DNA of 64,000 nucleotides from Lysobacteraceae bacterium (GTDB taxonomy: Bacteria > Pseudomonadota > Gammaproteobacteria > Xanthomonadales > Xanthomonadaceae). Location of the stretch: the NCBI GenBank assembly GCA_049296025.1, contig JBAQRU010000053.1, positions 2,088-66,087 on the forward strand, in the 5' to 3' direction. A program made the translations under genes and the position numbers. Positions 6,239-28,762 of the stretch are shown one piece after another (position 1 is the first letter of the stretch; each line of letters begins with the position of its first letter). Below the pieces are notes generated by a model. That model saw only the letters and a program-made list of their open reading frames with translations. It made no database searches and had not been told where the DNA came from.

Positions 6239-9200
6239 TCAGTTCGTTTCGATGCGCTCCGCGAGTCGATCGTGCAGCGCATCGCCCAGCGCATCTCCCG
6301 TCAGCGGCTTGCGCAGGAACGCATCGAAGCCTGCCTCTTTCGCATCCGACTCCGCACCGCTGTCCGCACGTGCGCTGATCGCGATCATCGGTGTTGTCCA
6401 GCCCTGCGCGCGCAGATGACGCGCAAGCGCGAGGCCATCCATCCCCGGCAGATCCAGATCGAACAAGGCGATATCGAAGCTGCCTGTGGCGATTTCGGTC
6501 AATGCCGCCAGCGCATGCCCGGCGTGCGTCACCCGATGCCCCTGCGCCTGCAACATGCCGACAAGCACGTCCGCGACGATGGCATCGTCCTCGACCAGGA
6601 GCACATCGCGGGGTGTCCGCACATCACCTTCCTGGTACCGGAAATGCACGGGCGCACTCGCGGCTGTTGCACGCTCCAACGGCAACCTCACCGTGAAGCG
6701 AGTCCCTTCTCCCGGCGCGCTGTGCAGTTCGATGCCACCGCCCATCGCCAACGCCAATTCCTCGCAGATCGCAAGCCCGAGCCCACTGCCGCCATACCGA
6801 CTCGCGGTGCGCGCGCCTTCCGCCTGCTCGAAACGGCGGAACAAGCGCTGCTGCTGCTCTGTATCCAGACCGGGACCGGTATCGCTTACGACAAATTGCA
6901 GTCCGTGCGGCATCGCCGCTTCGATCGACAATGCGACCTCGCCGCGCTCGGTGAACTTCACGGCGTTGCCGAGAAGATTGAGCAGAATCTGCCGGATCCG
7001 GGTCGGATCGCCGTGCCAACCGCCTCCAGCATCCGGCGCGATGTCGACACGAAGCGCCAAGCCCTTACGATCGGCCAGGGAACGCATCAACGCCGCCACT
7101 TCTTCCACCACTGCATCGAGATTGAAATCGACGACCTCAAGCTCAAGGCGTCCCGCTTCGATACGCGCGAGATCCAGCGCATCGTTCACGAGTCGCAACA
7201 AATGTTCGCCAGCCCGGCGAATCGAATGCACCTGCCCCTGCTGATTGGTATCGAGCGATGTCGATAACAACAGTTCGCTCATGCCGAGTACGCCGGTCAT
7301 CGGTGTACGCACCTCGTGACCGAGATTCGCGAGAAAACGACTTTTCGCCTGCGATGCCTGCTCCGCGATTTCGCGCTTCTGCGCGATCATCTGGTACTCA
7401 TGGCGCCGTTTGAGTCGAAGACGATAGAGATAAGCCGCCCACCAGAAAAGCATCGCAAGCGCAATGGCATAGCAGACCAGCGCCCACCACCGCTGCCACC
7501 AGGGCGCCTGCACCAATATCTCGACCCGCCGAATCGGGGACCAGACGCCGTCGGCATTCGCCCCCTGGACCTCAAGGACATAGTACCCAGGCGACAGTGC
7601 GGAGAATATACGTTCTCCACGGCTGCCTTGATCCACCCAGTCGGGATCATAGCCACTCAATCTGAACCGGTAGCGATAAGCCGCAGGATCGGCGAACGAC
7701 ATGATCCTTGCGACAATCCTGAGATCGCGGTCATCCGGCTGCATGACTGCGTGAAGATCCGCATTGCCGTGTCGCGAAAAAGCGACAGTGTCTTCTCCTC
7801 GCCGCAACTCGATCGTCTCGATCCCCAACGCGGACGCACGCGGCGCCGGCAACGGCTGGTCCGGGTCAAACATGACGATACCTTCTTTGGAAACAGCGAT
7901 CGCCGGGCCATCAGCCCTTCTTTTCAACACATCGACGGTGAAATCAAGGCCCGGCAAGCCATCCCGCAAACCGAACAAACGCGCGCGCCGCTGATGGGAA
8001 TCGTAGTGAACCAGGCCTCGAACAGTATTCAGCCAGATATTTCCAGTGGAAGTCACAAGCACACTCCTTGTTTCCACGGCAGGCAGTCCTTCCTGCGCCG
8101 TCACGCGCTCGCGCAAGCGAAGCGCGACCCCATCCCACTCGTAGCGCTCAAGACTACCGAAGCGCGCCACCCACAACTGATCTGCAGACGCGAAATCGAG
8201 GCCGTAAACATATTCGCCTGCAGGCAGTGGGGCACGAACGAATCGAGCACCATCCCAGCGCCTCAAATCCTTACCATCGCTGTACCACGGCGACCCATCT
8301 GGTGAAAATCTCAAGTCTATGAAAGCCTCCGTTTCTGCACCCAAAGTCTCTTCTGGCGAAAAATCTTTAATCAGCCTGCCTTTTTTTGAATATACAGACA
8401 TACCACCGCCAAAAAATGAAATCCAAATGTCGCCATTAAAATTGCACGCCAAAGCCTCCATTCTATGCAGCGCCTTATCTCTGTACTTTATTATTTTATC
8501 TACCTTTAGATTCCTCACACCTGAAACAAAAATCCCATCAGATCCTGCAATTAAAAAACTCCCATCTTCACAAATTTTTACGGACTTAGGATTTTCTGTC
8601 ACTATTCCGTACCTTACCTCACTTTTGAAATTTCTTTCAGTAGACAAACCAGTCTCATAGAAGCCATCGGAAGTTAGCACCCACAAGAAACCTTCGCCAT
8701 CCACTTCCCCACTAATAATATTACCTCCGCTCGAAAATCCAACCTTTTCGAGGAAAAAAAATCGACCGTCTTCTGGAGGAATATAAAGCAAACCCTCAGA
8801 GTTGCTGCCCAGCCATATTCCCGCCTCATCATCTTCAACAACACTATTAACACCACTCACTACGCCAAATCCGTCGTCGGCTCGTCTCCATCGGGTTGGA
8901 ATTGCCATTCTTCTGTACAATCCGTAGTAGGTGCCTATCCAATAGCTATCATCATTAGCATGCAGAACTACAGCACGTCGAGATAATTTTGGCGACCTCC
9001 ACGGAGGATTTCGAATCTCCCCATTTTGCCCAATCATGAATAAGCCATTTTCTGCGCCCACCCAAACCATGCCATTTTTATCAAGAGATAACGCAAATAC
9101 TGCGCCACCCTTGGTTTTTTCCTTATGCATTGCGACTGGACGAGAATTTAGAGCGCTCGGCTCGACTCGCCACAAACCCGTATCGGCGCCTATTAACAAA

Positions 9201-9805
9201 GTGCCTGACGTAAGCACCCTAATCGCCACAGGAACAGAGCCACCCAAATAAGAGTCTTGACCTAGCACCCCATTAAGCCTTGAAACAGCACCATCCGCTT
9301 CGATTCGGCATATGTCTCCCACATAGTTTCCAATCCAAAGAACACCTTCCTGGGTTGACGTCATCGCAGTGATATCGATACCGCATCGAGCAGCATCACC
9401 GCGAAACTGGATTGTTTTGGGAACTCGATGATCAGCGTCAAGGACGCTCAACGCGAACCACGTCGCCGCCCATACACGGTCCGCAGAATCCACATGGACC
9501 AAAGTCACTTCGTTGTCAGGCAAAGACGCTGGATCCCCTACGACACGGCGCCAGTAGCGGAAATTCGTCCCGTCGTAGCGGGCCAGGCCATCGCCTGTTG
9601 CCACCCAGATGTATCCTTGGCGATCGATTGCCAAGTCGTTGATCGTCGACGACAAGCCTTGTTCGACGCCGAACCGGATGAAGCGCGGCTCCCGTTGATC
9701 CGCCCCGGAGACTGGCGCTGCGGCCATGACTTGACCCGCGAACACCAGCACCACCGCGCATACCAGCGCAGCGATCGCAATCCTGCGCCAAGCTCCCTTC
9801 AGCAT
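6239..9805 (-). CDS. Hybrid sensor histidine kinase/response regulator with periplasmic beta-propeller and Y_Y_Y-type sensor
   Basis: Signal/TM segment, long propeller-like repeats, TM helix WWALVCYAIALAMLFWWAAYLY, H-box LANLGHEVRTPMTG, ATPase G-box GSGLGLAI, and receiver LLVEDD..DLDLPGMDG..LRKP. Start set at ATG 9805, preceded by AGGAGG. Confidence 0.85.
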   Translation of the reverse strand: MLKGAWRRIAIAALVCAVVLVFAGQVMAAAPVSGADQREPRFIRFGVEQGLSSTINDLAIDRQGYIWVATGDGLARYDGTNFRYWRRVVGDPASLPDNEVTLVHVDSADRVWAATWFALSVLDADHRVPKTIQFRGDAARCGIDITAMTSTQEGVLWIGNYVGDICRIEADGAVSRLNGVLGQDSYLGGSVPVAIRVLTSGTLLIGADTGLWRVEPSALNSRPVAMHKEKTKGGAVFALSLDKNGMVWVGAENGLFMIGQNGEIRNPPWRSPKLSRRAVVLHANDDSYWIGTYYGLYRRMAIPTRWRRADDGFGVVSGVNSVVEDDEAGIWLGSNSEGLLYIPPEDGRFFFLEKVGFSSGGNIISGEVDGEGFLWVLTSDGFYETGLSTERNFKSEVRYGIVTENPKSVKICEDGSFLIAGSDGIFVSGVRNLKVDKIIKYRDKALHRMEALACNFNGDIWISFFGGGMSVYSKKGRLIKDFSPEETLGAETEAFIDLRFSPDGSPWYSDGKDLRRWDGARFVRAPLPAGEYVYGLDFASADQLWVARFGSLERYEWDGVALRLRERVTAQEGLPAVETRSVLVTSTGNIWLNTVRGLVHYDSHQRRARLFGLRDGLPGLDFTVDVLKRRADGPAIAVSKEGIVMFDPDQPLPAPRASALGIETIELRRGEDTVAFSRHGNADLHAVMQPDDRDLRIVARIMSFADPAAYRYRFRLSGYDPDWVDQGSRGERIFSALSPGYYVLEVQGANADGVWSPIRRVEILVQAPWWQRWWALVCYAIALAMLFWWAAYLYRLRLKRRHEYQMIAQKREIAEQASQAKSRFLANLGHEVRTPMTGVLGMSELLLSTSLDTNQQGQVHSIRRAGEHLLRLVNDALDLARIEAGRLELEVVDFNLDAVVEEVAALMRSLADRKGLALRVDIAPDAGGGWHGDPTRIRQILLNLLGNAVKFTERGEVALSIEAAMPHGLQFVVSDTGPGLDTEQQQRLFRRFEQAEGARTASRYGGSGLGLAICEELALAMGGGIELHSAPGEGTRFTVRLPLERATAASAPVHFRYQEGDVRTPRDVLLVEDDAIVADVLVGMLQAQGHRVTHAGHALAALTEIATGSFDIALFDLDLPGMDGLALARHLRAQGWTTPMIAISARADSGAESDAKEAGFDAFLRKPLTGDALGDALHDRLAERIETN

Positions 9806-9921
9806 TCTTCCTCCTTGAGCCCTGCGACACGCATCGCCGTGCAATGCTTTATTGCATTTTAGGACAGGCATATCCTGCGTCATCCGCCTAGAATCGGGCA
9901 ATCCTAACGCAGGGCCATTTC

Positions 9922-25573: not shown

Positions 25574-25873
25574 ATGACCCAGCCGCTGCCGGGCATCGAC
25601 CACATCGTGGTGCTGATGCTGGAAAACCGTTCGTTCGACAACCTGTTCGGCGGCCTGTATCCCGCCGGCCCGGGTTTCCACGGTCTGACCGGAAACGAAT
25701 CGAACTTCAACCCGACCGCACCCGGCGTCGGCACCTGGACGGTGTGGCAAGCCCCGCCGGGCAGCGCCACCGGCACGATCCCGAACCCGGGCCCGGGCTT
25801 TGCATGCGCGAATGCTCAGGGCAGCCAAAGACCTGTTCATGCGAGAAAGGCCAACGTCCCATTGATGCATTAG
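25574..25873 (+). pseudogene. 5' fragment of a phosphoesterase (phospholipase C / acid phosphatase family) gene
   Basis: GIDHIVVLMLENRSFDNLFG is the N-terminal signature of proteins that are normally over 400 aa. Here the frame loses similarity after about 80 aa and stops at 25873. No continuation is visible in any frame. Confidence 0.65.
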
Positions 25874-25931
25874 CAGCGGTGCAGCCATTCAACATTGGAG
25901 ACCCGGAGGGCGGTGCGCAGGACGCGCACCG

Positions 25932-25964
25932 TTTTTCGATGAGGCAGGACGCCTCATCGAAAAA
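25932..25964. terminator. Bidirectional intrinsic-terminator-like hairpin
   Basis: TTTTTCGATGAGGC-AGGAC-GCCTCATCGAAAAA. Perfect 14-bp stem including the T5/A5 flanks. Confidence 0.55.
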
Positions 25965-26016
25965 TCCCAGCCATATCGCAGATTGCTGTTTAGATTTGGA
26001 CCTGAATGTTTTCTTT

Positions 26017-26110
26017 GGTGACTTTCTTGACTCGCGCCTGCGGCGCTCGCCCTCCGGGCCGGCTTCGCCGTTCGCGCCGCACGCGGCGCAGTGCGCCAAA
26101 GAAAGTCACC
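26017..26110. repeat. 12-bp perfect inverted repeat bracketing a 70-nt GC-rich core (REP/MITE-like or element end)
   Basis: GGTGACTTTCTT (26017-26028) and AAGAAAGTCACC (26099-26110). Confidence 0.4.
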
Positions 26111-26177
26111 CACGCGACAGCGTGGAAGCTTTGCTTTTGACTGCTGACGGGTATCGCTAAGTCCAGCCCAGCCCATC

Positions 26178-27338
26178 TCACTCACTGTTTATTGCTTCCA
26201 GAATTTTTCTATCTGATGATAATCGACTGAGCTCTTTGTCAAACTCTGACAACCCGCTTGGTGGTTCAAAAACGAGATTAATTACATGAACTCCAGATGC
26301 ATCTGTATCAGAGAGAAGCTTATCCAAATCAGAAACGCCAGTCTCAAAATTTTTTATTATTTCAGAAGTCCACCCATGCATCATTTTGAAAAGTGGATCG
26401 AACGCTTCATGTGGCCTTGAAAAACGCACGTCCATCTCAAGATCGTATAGCGACAAAAGAACGCCGTACAAATTGTCGCAAGCACGCTTTATCTTTACTG
26501 CATCTCCAGGCATCCCAGAGGGGCCAAACGCACTCATGAGCTGATTGTTTAATATTTCACAAGCCGATTTAACAGAATTACTTATATCAGAAAGTAGATT
26601 TCTAATGAATTTAGGCGTGCTCTTCCCCGAAATGTATTTTTGCCTTCTGAAGACAAATCCAGAATTTAAATCTTCATATTTTATTGATATCTTCAGCAGC
26701 CTATCTTTCAATATTTCACAAGCAAGCCTGTATTCCCAAGAATCATATTTGTCCGTAGCTATTTTAACAATGGACTCATTTTCATAAGCAAAATCAGCAG
26801 GGACAATAAGTCGATTTTCTTGCATTCGAGTTATTAACTCCCTAAACCTTATCGATAACTGTATTTTTAATGAAGATATTATTTCTTCAGTTCTTGAAAA
26901 TGGGAAAACCCACTTTGAATCAGACTCGACCTCGCCCAGAAAATCAAAAACACCATTGTCTTCAACTACCGGGCCAAGATCTATTTTCGGATTGTTTTTG
27001 TGGATTAACCTAAGATCCCATACGGATTTATCAACAAAAACCAAGCAATCAATTTTCGCAAGCTTGGCTTCTCGGTATTCTGAATTGACAACCGACTTTC
27101 CACTTGAAGGATCAAGAGAACCTCTTTTCCCTCCAATTATCAAGACAAATATATCTGCCCTCTCCCTGACAACCTTCTTGCAATTGTCAACTGTTGACAA
27201 GCTTGGGCTAACCGGAAAAGACGCGTATTCACTTAAAACTGGATCATGTCCCAACGACGTGATCTCCGCCATGAGATGCTCTCTAAGAGCTCTCAAATCG
27301 TAACAAGTCGAACTAATAAATATTGAAGTAGGACGCAT
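26178..27338 (-). CDS. AT-rich orphan protein: DUF4062-like (TIR/Rossmann-like) N-terminal domain plus an unassigned helical C-terminal region
   Basis: Uninterrupted 386-aa ORF with AGGAG 7 nt upstream of the ATG. IFISSTCYDLRALREHL, ADIFVLIIGGKRGS and SVVNSEYREAKLAKIDCLVFV fit my memory of DUF4062. G+C is about 33% on the line I counted. Confidence 0.75.
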   Translation of the reverse strand: MRPTSIFISSTCYDLRALREHLMAEITSLGHDPVLSEYASFPVSPSLSTVDNCKKVVRERADIFVLIIGGKRGSLDPSSGKSVVNSEYREAKLAKIDCLVFVDKSVWDLRLIHKNNPKIDLGPVVEDNGVFDFLGEVESDSKWVFPFSRTEEIISSLKIQLSIRFRELITRMQENRLIVPADFAYENESIVKIATDKYDSWEYRLACEILKDRLLKISIKYEDLNSGFVFRRQKYISGKSTPKFIRNLLSDISNSVKSACEILNNQLMSAFGPSGMPGDAVKIKRACDNLYGVLLSLYDLEMDVRFSRPHEAFDPLFKMMHGWTSEIIKNFETGVSDLDKLLSDTDASGVHVINLVFEPPSGLSEFDKELSRLSSDRKILEAINSE

Positions 27339-27348
27339 CCATAAACTC

Positions 27349-27777
27349 CTAACTCGAAATATACCGCTGCAAAGAATCCAACTCCGCCCGCTGATCCTCG
27401 ATCACCGCCTTCACCAGATCCCCGATCGACACGATTCCCACAACATCATCACCATCCACCACAGGTAGATGCCGGATGCGACGCTCCGTCATCACCTGCA
27501 TGCAACCATCCGACGTATCGAGCGACGTAGCGACGATCACTTCGGACGTCATGATGTCGCGCACCGGCGTGTCCGAAGACGAACGCCCCTGCAGCACGAC
27601 TTTGCGCGCGTAATCGCGTTCGGAAAGGATGCCGACAAGGCGGGGGCCGTCCATCACCAGCAGTGCGCCGATGCGCGCCTCCGCCATCAGGCGGATGGCG
27701 TCGAGGACCGGGGCCTCAGGACGGATCGCGTGGATCGCGGGGCTCTTCGCTTCCAACAGCTGACGGACGGTACGCAT
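27349..27777 (-). CDS. CBS-domain pair protein
   Basis: Two CBS repeats (..IGALLVMDGPRLVGILSERD.. and ..IRHLPVVDGDDVVGIVSIGDL..). Start set at ATG 27777 (MRTVRQLL). Confidence 0.8.
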   Translation of the reverse strand: MRTVRQLLEAKSPAIHAIRPEAPVLDAIRLMAEARIGALLVMDGPRLVGILSERDYARKVVLQGRSSSDTPVRDIMTSEVIVATSLDTSDGCMQVMTERRIRHLPVVDGDDVVGIVSIGDLVKAVIEDQRAELDSLQRYISS

Positions 27778-28762
27778 GGCGCAAGTCTCCTTCAGGGGCG
27801 ATGTCCCCGGAGGATACGCCCGCAGCGGGCCGCCAGCGATCCACCAGATACAGCGGCCGCTGCTTGGATTCCTCATACAGCCGGCCGAGGTATTCGCCGA
27901 TTACGCCCAGCGCCATCAGCTGCACGCCGCCCAGCAGCAGGATCACGGTCATCATCGTCGGCCAGCCGGCCACCGGATCGCCCCAGAACATCGCCTTGAT
28001 CACGATCCACGATGCGTAGACGAACGCCAGCACGGCGGTGAGCACGCCGAGATAGGTCGCCACCCGCAGCGGCGCGGTGGAAAAACTGGTCACGCCTTCA
28101 AGTGCGAAGTTCCACAACCGCCATGCGTTGAACTTGCTGCGTCCGGCCACGCGCGCTTCGCGGTGGTAGGGAATGGAAACCTGCCGGAACCCGACCCAAC
28201 CGAACAGGCCCTTCATGAAGCGGTGCCGCTCGCGCAGTTCGCGCAGGGCGGCAAGCGAGCGCGGTGACAGCAGGCGGAAGTCGCCGGTATCGGTAGGGAT
28301 CGGGGTTTTCGACAGCCGCTGCATCACCCGGTAGAAGCCGTGGGCGGTGGTGCGCTTGAACCAGCCCTCGCCGTCGCGCGCGGTGCGGGTGCCGTGGACG
28401 TCGTCGTAGCCCTCGCGCCATTTCGCCACGAACTGCGGGATCAGCTCCGGCGGGTCCTGGCCGTCGGCGTCGAGAATGATCGCGGCACCTTCGCGGACCT
28501 GATCGAGACCGGCGGTGAGCGCGGCCTCCTTGCCGAAATTGCGGCTGAGCCGCAGCAGCGACACCCGAGGGTCGGCAGCGGCGATGTCGTCGAGCACCGC
28601 CCAGGTGCGGTCGCGACTGCCGTCGTCGACGTACAGCACATGCCCCTCCACGCCCTCGCCCACCAGCCCGTCGAGCACGGCGGCGATCCGCGGGTGCAGC
28701 GCCGGCAGGGCTTCGGCCTCGTTGAAGGCGGCGACGACGACGGTCAGGCGATCGGCATTCAT
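27716..28762 (-). CDS. Polyprenyl-phosphate glycosyltransferase, GT2 (GtrB/ArnC/DPM1-like)
   Basis: LTVVVAAFNEAEAL..YVDDGSRDRT..LSRNFGKEAALTAGL..ILDADGQDPPE plus two C-terminal TM helices. Start set at ATG 28762. Confidence 0.85.
   Translation of the reverse strand: MNADRLTVVVAAFNEAEALPALHPRIAAVLDGLVGEGVEGHVLYVDDGSRDRTWAVLDDIAAADPRVSLLRLSRNFGKEAALTAGLDQVREGAAIILDADGQDPPELIPQFVAKWREGYDDVHGTRTARDGEGWFKRTTAHGFYRVMQRLSKTPIPTDTGDFRLLSPRSLAALRELRERHRFMKGLFGWVGFRQVSIPYHREARVAGRSKFNAWRLWNFALEGVTSFSTAPLRVATYLGVLTAVLAFVYASWIVIKAMFWGDPVAGWPTMMTVILLLGGVQLMALGVIGEYLGRLYEESKQRPLYLVDRWRPAAGVSSGDIAPEGDLRHAYRPSAVGSEEPRDPRDPS

Follow-up and report, generated by a model that had tools for sequence, protein, structure and literature searches.

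Single-gene abortive infection by proteins that combine a DUF4062 domain with an auxiliary (AUX) domain has been known since May-June 2026. Osinski et al. (10.64898/2026.05.01.722283) described DUF4062 as a TIR-like NADase and characterized KpSwz ("Swarozyc"), a single-gene DUF4062+AUX protein of Klebsiella pneumoniae; Ibarra-Chavez et al. (10.64898/2026.06.25.731849) described "Evangelion", likewise encoded by one gene and composed of a conserved DUF4062 core and a diversified AUX. Here we analyse a gene of this kind in a 64,000-nucleotide stretch of a Lysobacteraceae bacterium genome (assembly GCA_049296025.1, contig JBAQRU010000053.1, positions 2,088 to 66,087), referred to below as the window and numbered from its first letter. 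The gene occupies positions 26178..27338 on the minus strand, where the open reading frame (ORF) listing gives a complete frame of 386 amino acids (aa) with an ATG start and a TGA stop codon (26178-26180); its product is identical to the NCBI entry 'MAG: DUF4062 domain-containing protein [Lysobacteraceae bacterium]'. By analogy with the two characterized systems, we assign a probability of roughly 0.68 to the reading that this is a DUF4062+AUX system in which one protein counters phages through abortive infection. The effector part of such a protein is no longer surprising; what is new here is a distinct type of AUX, common to many effector classes.

KpSwz turns NAD+ into ADP-ribose and nicotinamide and acts by abortive infection; it requires both E97 and the auxiliary domain for defence, and it is activated when the phage portal protein binds its helix-turn-helix (HTH)/winged-helix AUX, in which a hairpin serves as anchor (Osinski et al.). 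Structures of KpSwz are available (PDB 10wc, 11cq and 11cv). Eva01, the founding member of Evangelion, is a 324-aa protein from S. aureus pMW2 (WP_000072390.1), in which F11, E87, W162 and the AUX are essential; the NAD+ level drops on infection, and phage escapers map to recombination genes. Eva01 has been linked to DNA intermediates and to the recombination proteins of phages (Ibarra-Chavez et al.).

A predicted TIR-like NAD+ glycohydrolase at the N-terminus

The window protein matched Pfam DUF4062 (PF13271) with an E-value of 6.8e-19 and 68.3 bits (cutoff 24.7). The matched part, residues 6-91 (27066-27323, minus strand), spans profile positions 2-82 of 82; PHROGs gave weak N-terminal matches only. 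An AlphaFold2 model of the full protein, built on 52 homologues, reached a mean predicted local distance difference test score (pLDDT) of 89.1. It displays a core (residues 5-147) in which five beta strands and helices alternate, then a long helix comprising residues 150-173 (alphaE/stalk; 26820..26891, minus strand) that links the core to the AUX, and an all-helical C-terminal region. When the model was compared with the PDB by Foldseek, the best matches were TIR domains, namely those of plant RPS4/RPP1, SPARTA TIR-APAZ, SARM1 and BtpA, with probabilities of ~1.0 and target-normalised TM scores of 0.52-0.61 at weak E-values of 2.5e-3 and above; TIR-STING was also among the structural matches. 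The PDB copy used predates the release of the KpSwz structures, which thus lay outside these comparisons. On the basis of the model and the structural matches, the DUF4062 core (residues 1-148; 26895..27338, minus strand) has a flavodoxin-type beta-alpha, TIR-like fold. Neither Pfam nor the model revealed an NTPase domain, in which respect the protein is unlike the STAND/NACHT-associated, TEP1/NWD-like DUF4062 proteins.

An earlier, sequence-only reading of this gene (the first-pass annotation) had proposed a DUF4062 module with a TIR-like fold and had seen no NTPase, and it was right on all three counts. The domain is longer than its estimate of ~115 aa: because the modelled beta/alpha core extends to about residue 148, with the stalk helix continuing to 173, the TIR-like domain comprises ~150 aa. 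Osinski et al. likewise state that the Pfam DUF4062 model spans only about half of the domain. The same annotation had singled out the glutamate of a SEYRE sequence. This residue, Glu87 (codon GAA, 27078..27080, minus strand; motif N-S-E-Y), is invariant in the family and aligns with the essential glutamates of KpSwz and Eva01, as detailed below.

A family profile aligned with KpSwz (PDB chain 10wc_A) with an E-value of 6.4e-10 and placed E87 opposite the E97A position of the KpSwz construct. KpSwz was found only by this profile; a single-sequence phmmer search of the PDB gave no match. A tblastn search also retrieved, on a plasmid of Vibrio, an orthologue of Swarozyc that is full length and itself matches 10wc_A at 2e-97. 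Against this orthologue the family profile yielded an hhalign E-value of 1.2e-12, restricted to residues ~2-105 at 27% identity, and homology to Swarozyc was found neither with 10wc_A nor with the Vibrio orthologue beyond about residue 105. The comparison with Eva01, taken from pMW2, had the same outcome: BLASTP and hhalign cover only ~96 N-terminal residues, at 28% identity, and full-length homology including the AUX was not found. Over residues 5-92 of this alignment, F7 lies opposite F11 and E87-Y88 opposite E87-Y88. The predicted catalytic E87 accordingly corresponds to E97 of KpSwz and E87 of Eva01. By analogy with these proteins, the N-terminal ~150 residues most likely constitute a TIR-like NAD+ glycohydrolase with Glu87 as the predicted catalytic residue, and the helix formed by residues 150-173 may be likened to the helical stalk of KpSwz.

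The domain could also be active with another chemistry, either producing a signalling nucleotide (a cyclic ADP-ribose isomer, as in Thoeris) or acting on a nucleoside or nucleic-acid substrate, as in its distant nucleoside 2-deoxyribosyltransferase (NDT) relatives. In sequence space DUF4062 falls between the TIR clan and the NDT clan (Osinski et al.), DNPH1, which has an NDT-like fold, appears at low rank among our Foldseek matches, and activation of Eva01 perturbs several adenine metabolites besides NAD+ (Ibarra-Chavez et al.). We nevertheless regard such a chemistry as unlikely: the locus contains no partner effector gene that would read a signal, KpSwz and TEP1 yielded only ADP-ribose and nicotinamide and no cyclic products (Osinski et al.), and the sister architectures of the AUX use directly toxic effectors such as HNH and Mrr domains, which fits the N-terminal domain as a terminal effector.

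A portable all-helical module at the C-terminus

The C-terminal AUX module (about residues 181-386; 26181..26798, minus strand) is an all-helical bundle. Its sequence motifs are W201-E202 and a loop of the form G272-P-x-G275-x-P-G278-D. Modelled alone (residues 174-386), it folded into a bundle of long helices with a pLDDT of 93.8 and a predicted template modelling (pTM) score of 0.88. The C-terminal ~210 aa received no assignment from Pfam, NCBIfam, PADLOC or PHROG. Foldseek with the AUX alone found nothing significant in the same PDB copy, the best match being the talin R9 rod at E=0.26 among generic helical bundles, and no meaningful match among the predicted viral structures of BFVD. The first-pass description of this part as helical and unassignable to any family was therefore apt.

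The AUX is not confined to DUF4062 proteins. We searched 1.84 billion representative proteins (50% identity clusters) with phmmer, using the AUX alone as query, and detected it in 327 representative clusters at E<=1e-3, 96 of them at E<=1e-10, where it is placed behind N-termini of widely differing length. The best 150 matches were scanned with Pfam and PADLOC for the domains that precede the AUX. DUF4062 itself was assigned in 21 by Pfam (up to 25 in all). CAP12/Pycsar TIR was present in 6 at the strict Pfam threshold and in 12 when clustering and weaker matches were included. NNH5, DUF4236 and Schlafen/AlbA_2 were found three times each by Pfam, the Mrr nuclease domain (Mrr_cat) twice, and T5orf172, TIR_2, EAD1 and an nSTAND NTPase once each. 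PADLOC recognised a Cap5-like HNH endonuclease (also listed as PDC-M68A) in 27 of the 150 and a CBASS TIR effector in 4; its matches were confined to the N-terminal part of these proteins and never fell in the AUX. Local clustering distinguished ~20 N-terminal classes joined to the AUX. Homology of the AUX across these architectures was evident from profile-profile comparisons with the HNH+AUX proteins (probability 99.9%, E=6e-34), the CAP12-TIR+AUX proteins (99.7%, E=2e-26) and a DUF4236+AUX protein from a Bradyrhizobium plasmid (99.2%, E=1.5e-19). The AUX is a portable module common to many effector types.

One regulatory module combined with interchangeable toxic effectors is a standard signature of defence sensors. 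The AUX of the window protein may act as a sensor or assembly domain, an idea strengthened by the fusion of the same C-terminal domain to many other defence effectors. A bolder proposal is that the AUX is a widespread and so far undescribed module for sensing phages (or for assembly in response to a trigger), and that a superfamily of one-gene abortive-infection proteins shares it as the sensor of a single conserved phage cue; we hold this only tentatively, at a little under even odds. A description of the module was not found in the main text of either DUF4062 preprint, and neither Pfam nor PADLOC v2 contains a model of it. Since the Swarozyc authors annotated auxiliary domains by Pfam alone (Osinski et al.), this module would have escaped them.

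Two further observations concern the AUX proteins. DUF4236 is joined to the AUX repeatedly, in the Bradyrhizobium sp. 186 plasmid p186_1 (L087:5635-6564), where the gene sits amid recombinase/integrase genes, and in the proteins P0334, P0353 and P0358; this hints that DUF4236 may itself be a conflict-system effector or adaptor. In about 60 of the best 150 matches (for example P0246, P0247, P0253 and P0259) the protein is ~200 aa long and the AUX is preceded by fewer than 40 residues; these represent either gene fragments or free-standing AUX modules that might serve as decoys or as sensors acting in trans.

Family conservation and genomic contexts of relatives

We detected 508 homologues of the DUF4062+AUX protein, so the term orphan used in the first-pass annotation is wrong if it means a gene without relatives. 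Most homologues are full length (~387 aa); ~80 of the full-length ones share 50-57% identity with the window protein, and a further tier lies at 32-41%. Rhodoferax ferrireducens, Methylobacter and Vibrio anguillarum are among the hosts. Across 52 aligned members, 24 positions are invariant, among them F7, E87, W143, Q160 and W201-E202, and the window protein retains all 24.

The genomic contexts of the relatives are mixed: some genes are solitary, some stand beside defence genes and some are on plasmids. Three defence neighbourhoods were confirmed by PADLOC. One relative adjoins PARIS AriA/AriB, PDC-S31 and a type II methyltransferase, with an IS110 element nearby; another adjoins PD-T7-4; and a third adjoins PDC-S47/Abi_alpha within a cassette-array-like region of V. 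anguillarum chromosome 2, where ParE/Phd pairs are also found. Full-length homologues occur on four Enterococcus plasmids (32% identity, E=2e-45); in pXD5 the neighbours of the gene are Fic, a toxin-antitoxin pair of the Doc type, an integrase and genes for aminoglycoside resistance. The Evangelion paper likewise stresses a resistance-plasmid setting (Ibarra-Chavez et al.). Solitary copies amid housekeeping genes were seen in Rhodoferax, at a locus just past groEL and in another metagenome-assembled genome (MAG), again as gene-sized dips in GC content. Members other than the window gene (L089:8289-11161, L001 and L093) are, like it, ORF-only low-GC inserts just behind housekeeping genes; one begins 93 bp past groEL, and no recognisable mobility genes lie beside them.

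Such surroundings could also be those of a conflict or stress toxin that is not aimed at phages, whether an addiction or selfish module, a device for dormancy under stress, or a weapon in plasmid or inter-bacterial competition. Relatives do lie amid toxin-antitoxin genes and on plasmids, and many copies stand alone, outside recognised defence islands. This role of the protein nonetheless appears improbable to us, because the two DUF4062+AUX proteins characterised so far react to parts of the phage (the portal in one case, the recombination machinery in the other), no antitoxin-like small ORF is adjacent to the window gene, and the partners of the AUX include the effector domains of the CBASS and Pycsar anti-phage systems.

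Foreign origin and insertion behind a host gene

The DUF4062+AUX gene has a GC content of 0.388 (0.35 at third codon positions, GC3), compared with 0.62-0.67 (GC3 0.76-0.87) for the neighbouring genes and 0.63-0.65 for its flanks. The dip is gene-sized (~26180-27348): it begins just past the stop codon of the upstream gene and stops at the gene's own stop. Directly upstream lies a host gene for a CBS-domain protein (27349..27780, minus strand; Pfam CBS), which is 87% identical to its Lysobacter brunescens counterpart and belongs to the order CBS -> HlyIII -> prfC kept across the Lysobacteraceae. In a presence/absence comparison, neither a DUF4062 gene nor a phosphoesterase was found at the CBS-HlyIII locus in any of 80 related genomes. 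Its composition and its absence from the locus in relatives mark the gene as of foreign origin. In the Lysobacteraceae, the interval between CBS and HlyIII is a variable hotspot (loci L007-L034). Its length runs from 27 bp to 2.9 kb; several species have an AsmA-like gene of 650-670 aa there, L. brunescens has a gene with a BLUF domain, and elsewhere the interval is empty.

The first-pass annotation had drawn attention to this foreign composition. Its hand counts (20/60 G+C for 26581-26640 and 37/60 for 27841-27900) were exact on recounting, and its statement that this is the only strongly AT-rich gene in the window stands for whole genes. It does not stand for parts of genes: a second AT-rich patch (~8100-9400, GC 0.39-0.49 compared with 0.63) lies within the N-terminal sensor region of an otherwise host-like, 1220-aa hybrid sensor-kinase-like ORF (6239-9901, minus strand), which suggests a recombined or mosaic segment in a host-like gene. 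The annotation had also reported no partner gene, integrase or transposase. By the ORF listing and Pfam, the neighbours are indeed unrelated housekeeping genes, with no integrase or transposase among the scanned neighbouring genes of the window. We found no tRNA in the whole window, no direct repeats beyond chance flanking the insert, and no attC core pair (RYYYAAC...GTTRRRY) in 25700-27450 with a simple regular expression, a search of low power that found none in the Vibrio loci either.

The DUF4062+AUX gene starts only 10 nt past the stop of the CBS gene. A Shine-Dalgarno sequence (AGGAG, 27346..27350, minus strand), read from the sequence, is located 7 nt 5' of the ATG and overlaps the TAG stop of the CBS gene (27349-27351, minus strand), and a consensus scan detected no sigma-70-like promoter in the 10-nt gap. 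The gene is probably co-transcribed with the CBS gene. At the other end, the same kind of scan placed a terminator-like hairpin with a T-rich tail at 26099..26126 (minus strand), 52-79 nt past the stop codon, although such sites were no more frequent in the scan than in shuffled sequences.

Beyond the stop codon lies the remnant of a phosphoesterase-family gene (25574..25873, plus strand), which matches only positions 1-22 of the 356 of PF04185. It consists of ~75 N-terminal codons of host-like GC content, after which the frame enters foreign or spacer sequence; because no counterpart was found at this locus in the 80 relatives, it lies outside the conserved synteny. The first-pass annotation had the DUF4062+AUX gene inserted at the expense of a host gene: the truncated ORF of host composition is real, and that the insertion caused its truncation is plausible. 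The spacer between the gene and the remnant holds a nested GC-rich palindrome (26017..26110; inverted repeats I5 and I7) with perfect 12-nt outer arms, GGTGACTTTCTT and AAGAAAGTCACC, and a second inverted repeat inside. The region folds with z=-3.3, and the outer arm occurs nowhere else in the window, where chance alone would give 0.08 matches. A perfect 14-bp hairpin is present at 25932-25964 (arms TTTTTCGATGAGGC and GCCTCATCGAAAAA, 5-nt loop). It was rejected as a terminator, its 5' T-run and 3' A-run having the reverse polarity on either strand.

The gene might instead be a passenger that is silent (unexpressed through xenogeneic silencing) or decaying and no longer functional. This would fit a GC content 25 points under that of the host without amelioration, the lack of a detected promoter of its own and an adjacent phosphoesterase remnant that marks a spot tolerant of decay, yet it seems improbable against an intact, full-length ORF with all 24 family-invariant residues including E87, a strong and properly spaced Shine-Dalgarno sequence directly behind an expressed-looking host gene, and a confidently folded model.

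A candidate single-protein abortive-infection system

The reading of the window protein as a single-protein abortive-infection system, to which the first-pass annotation had pointed, gains support from the DUF4062+AUX systems described in 2026, and the defence role of this lineage is proposed by analogy with them. We computed the domain identity, the conserved glutamate, the fold, the foreign origin, the modularity of the AUX and the defence neighbours of relatives directly. Others demonstrated for the relatives that they have NADase activity, act by abortive infection and require an AUX, and we infer the same for the window protein. The gene would have arrived by horizontal transfer as a nearly ORF-only insert at the variable position that separates CBS from HlyIII, and would probably be expressed from the transcript of the CBS gene. 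In the resting cell, the TIR-like NADase would be kept inactive by autoinhibition, with helix 150-173 connecting the TIR-like core to the ~200-aa helical AUX. Engagement of a phage-derived trigger by the AUX would cause the protein to reorganise or oligomerise, and the activated TIR-like domain would then deplete NAD+ and abort the infection.

Several points weigh against this proposal. Three of the four human DUF4062 proteins (NWD1, NWD2 and NPHP3) were without NADase activity in vitro (Osinski et al.), and Eva02 gave no protection (Ibarra-Chavez et al.), so that the domain alone is no guarantee of activity. Over ~100 residues, the core is 27-28% identical to KpSwz and Eva01, compared with ~43% between those two. 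The 'Q/W/E' motif, reported to be conserved among Evangelion proteins (Q50-W51-E52 in Eva01), is T49-V50-D51 here, where the family consensus is T-V-E, so that only the acidic residue is kept. The whole protein had no match in PADLOC v2 or NCBIfam. The gene is solitary in the window and in three other genomes. Finally, the AUX is possibly an assembly scaffold instead of a sensor.

Two DUF4062 sensors have been characterised so far, the AUX of KpSwz, which binds the phage portal, and that of Eva01, which is linked to recombination intermediates; the window locus adds a third, structurally different one. If its trigger were known, the specificity of single-gene systems that number in the hundreds and are uncharacterised would become clear, and annotation tools such as PADLOC and DefenseFinder could recognise them by their sensor. 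A further lesson of the locus is that a foreign insert consisting of little more than an ORF can plug into a host transcript behind a housekeeping gene, far from defence islands, where guilt-by-association searches would miss it.

Comparison with known defence systems

The window protein resembles Swarozyc in being encoded by a single gene, in its N-terminal DUF4062 domain with an aligned catalytic glutamate, and in its helical stalk followed by a C-terminal auxiliary domain. The sizes are similar (~340 aa for KpSwz, 386 aa for the window protein), and the same output, conversion of NAD+ into ADP-ribose plus nicotinamide, together with abortive infection, would be expected. The auxiliary domains differ: that of KpSwz is an HTH/winged-helix domain, whereas that of the window protein is a ~200-aa bundle of long helices without sequence similarity to it. 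Because of this difference, the phage portal is not an expected trigger here.

In a broad sense the protein also resembles Evangelion, with one gene, an N-terminal DUF4062 core, a non-NTPase auxiliary region and no partner genes. The N-terminal aromatic residue (F11 of Eva01) and the acidic-SYT/E-Y motif (E87-Y88) of the Evangelion core have invariant counterparts here in F7 and E87-Y88. Both genes are mobile by horizontal transfer, and Enterococcus resistance plasmids carry relatives of the window protein over its full length. Unlike Eva01, the window protein has an unrelated AUX and T-V-D in place of Q/W/E, and nothing here points to a link with recombination.

More distant parallels exist with CBASS and Pycsar, whose Cap5-type HNH and CAP12 TIR effector domains occur fused to the AUX type of the window protein. 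Like it, these effectors are self-contained killing modules under the control of a regulatory domain at the C- or N-terminus. Their gate is a cyclic-nucleotide sensor (SAVED and others) served by a separate cyclase gene, whereas here it would be the AUX, with no cyclase or other partner gene. Thoeris ThsB, SPARTA TIR-APAZ and TIR-STING share with the window protein a TIR-type fold, a catalytic glutamate and NAD+ as the expected substrate, but they belong to Pfam TIR/TIR_2 and not to DUF4062, the Foldseek E-values reach only ~1e-3 to 1e-2, and the locus has no Argonaute, STING or ThsA partner.

Collectively, these sequence comparisons indicate that the window lineage has its effector in common with KpSwz and Eva01 but not its sensor, since neither protein aligns with it beyond about residue 105.

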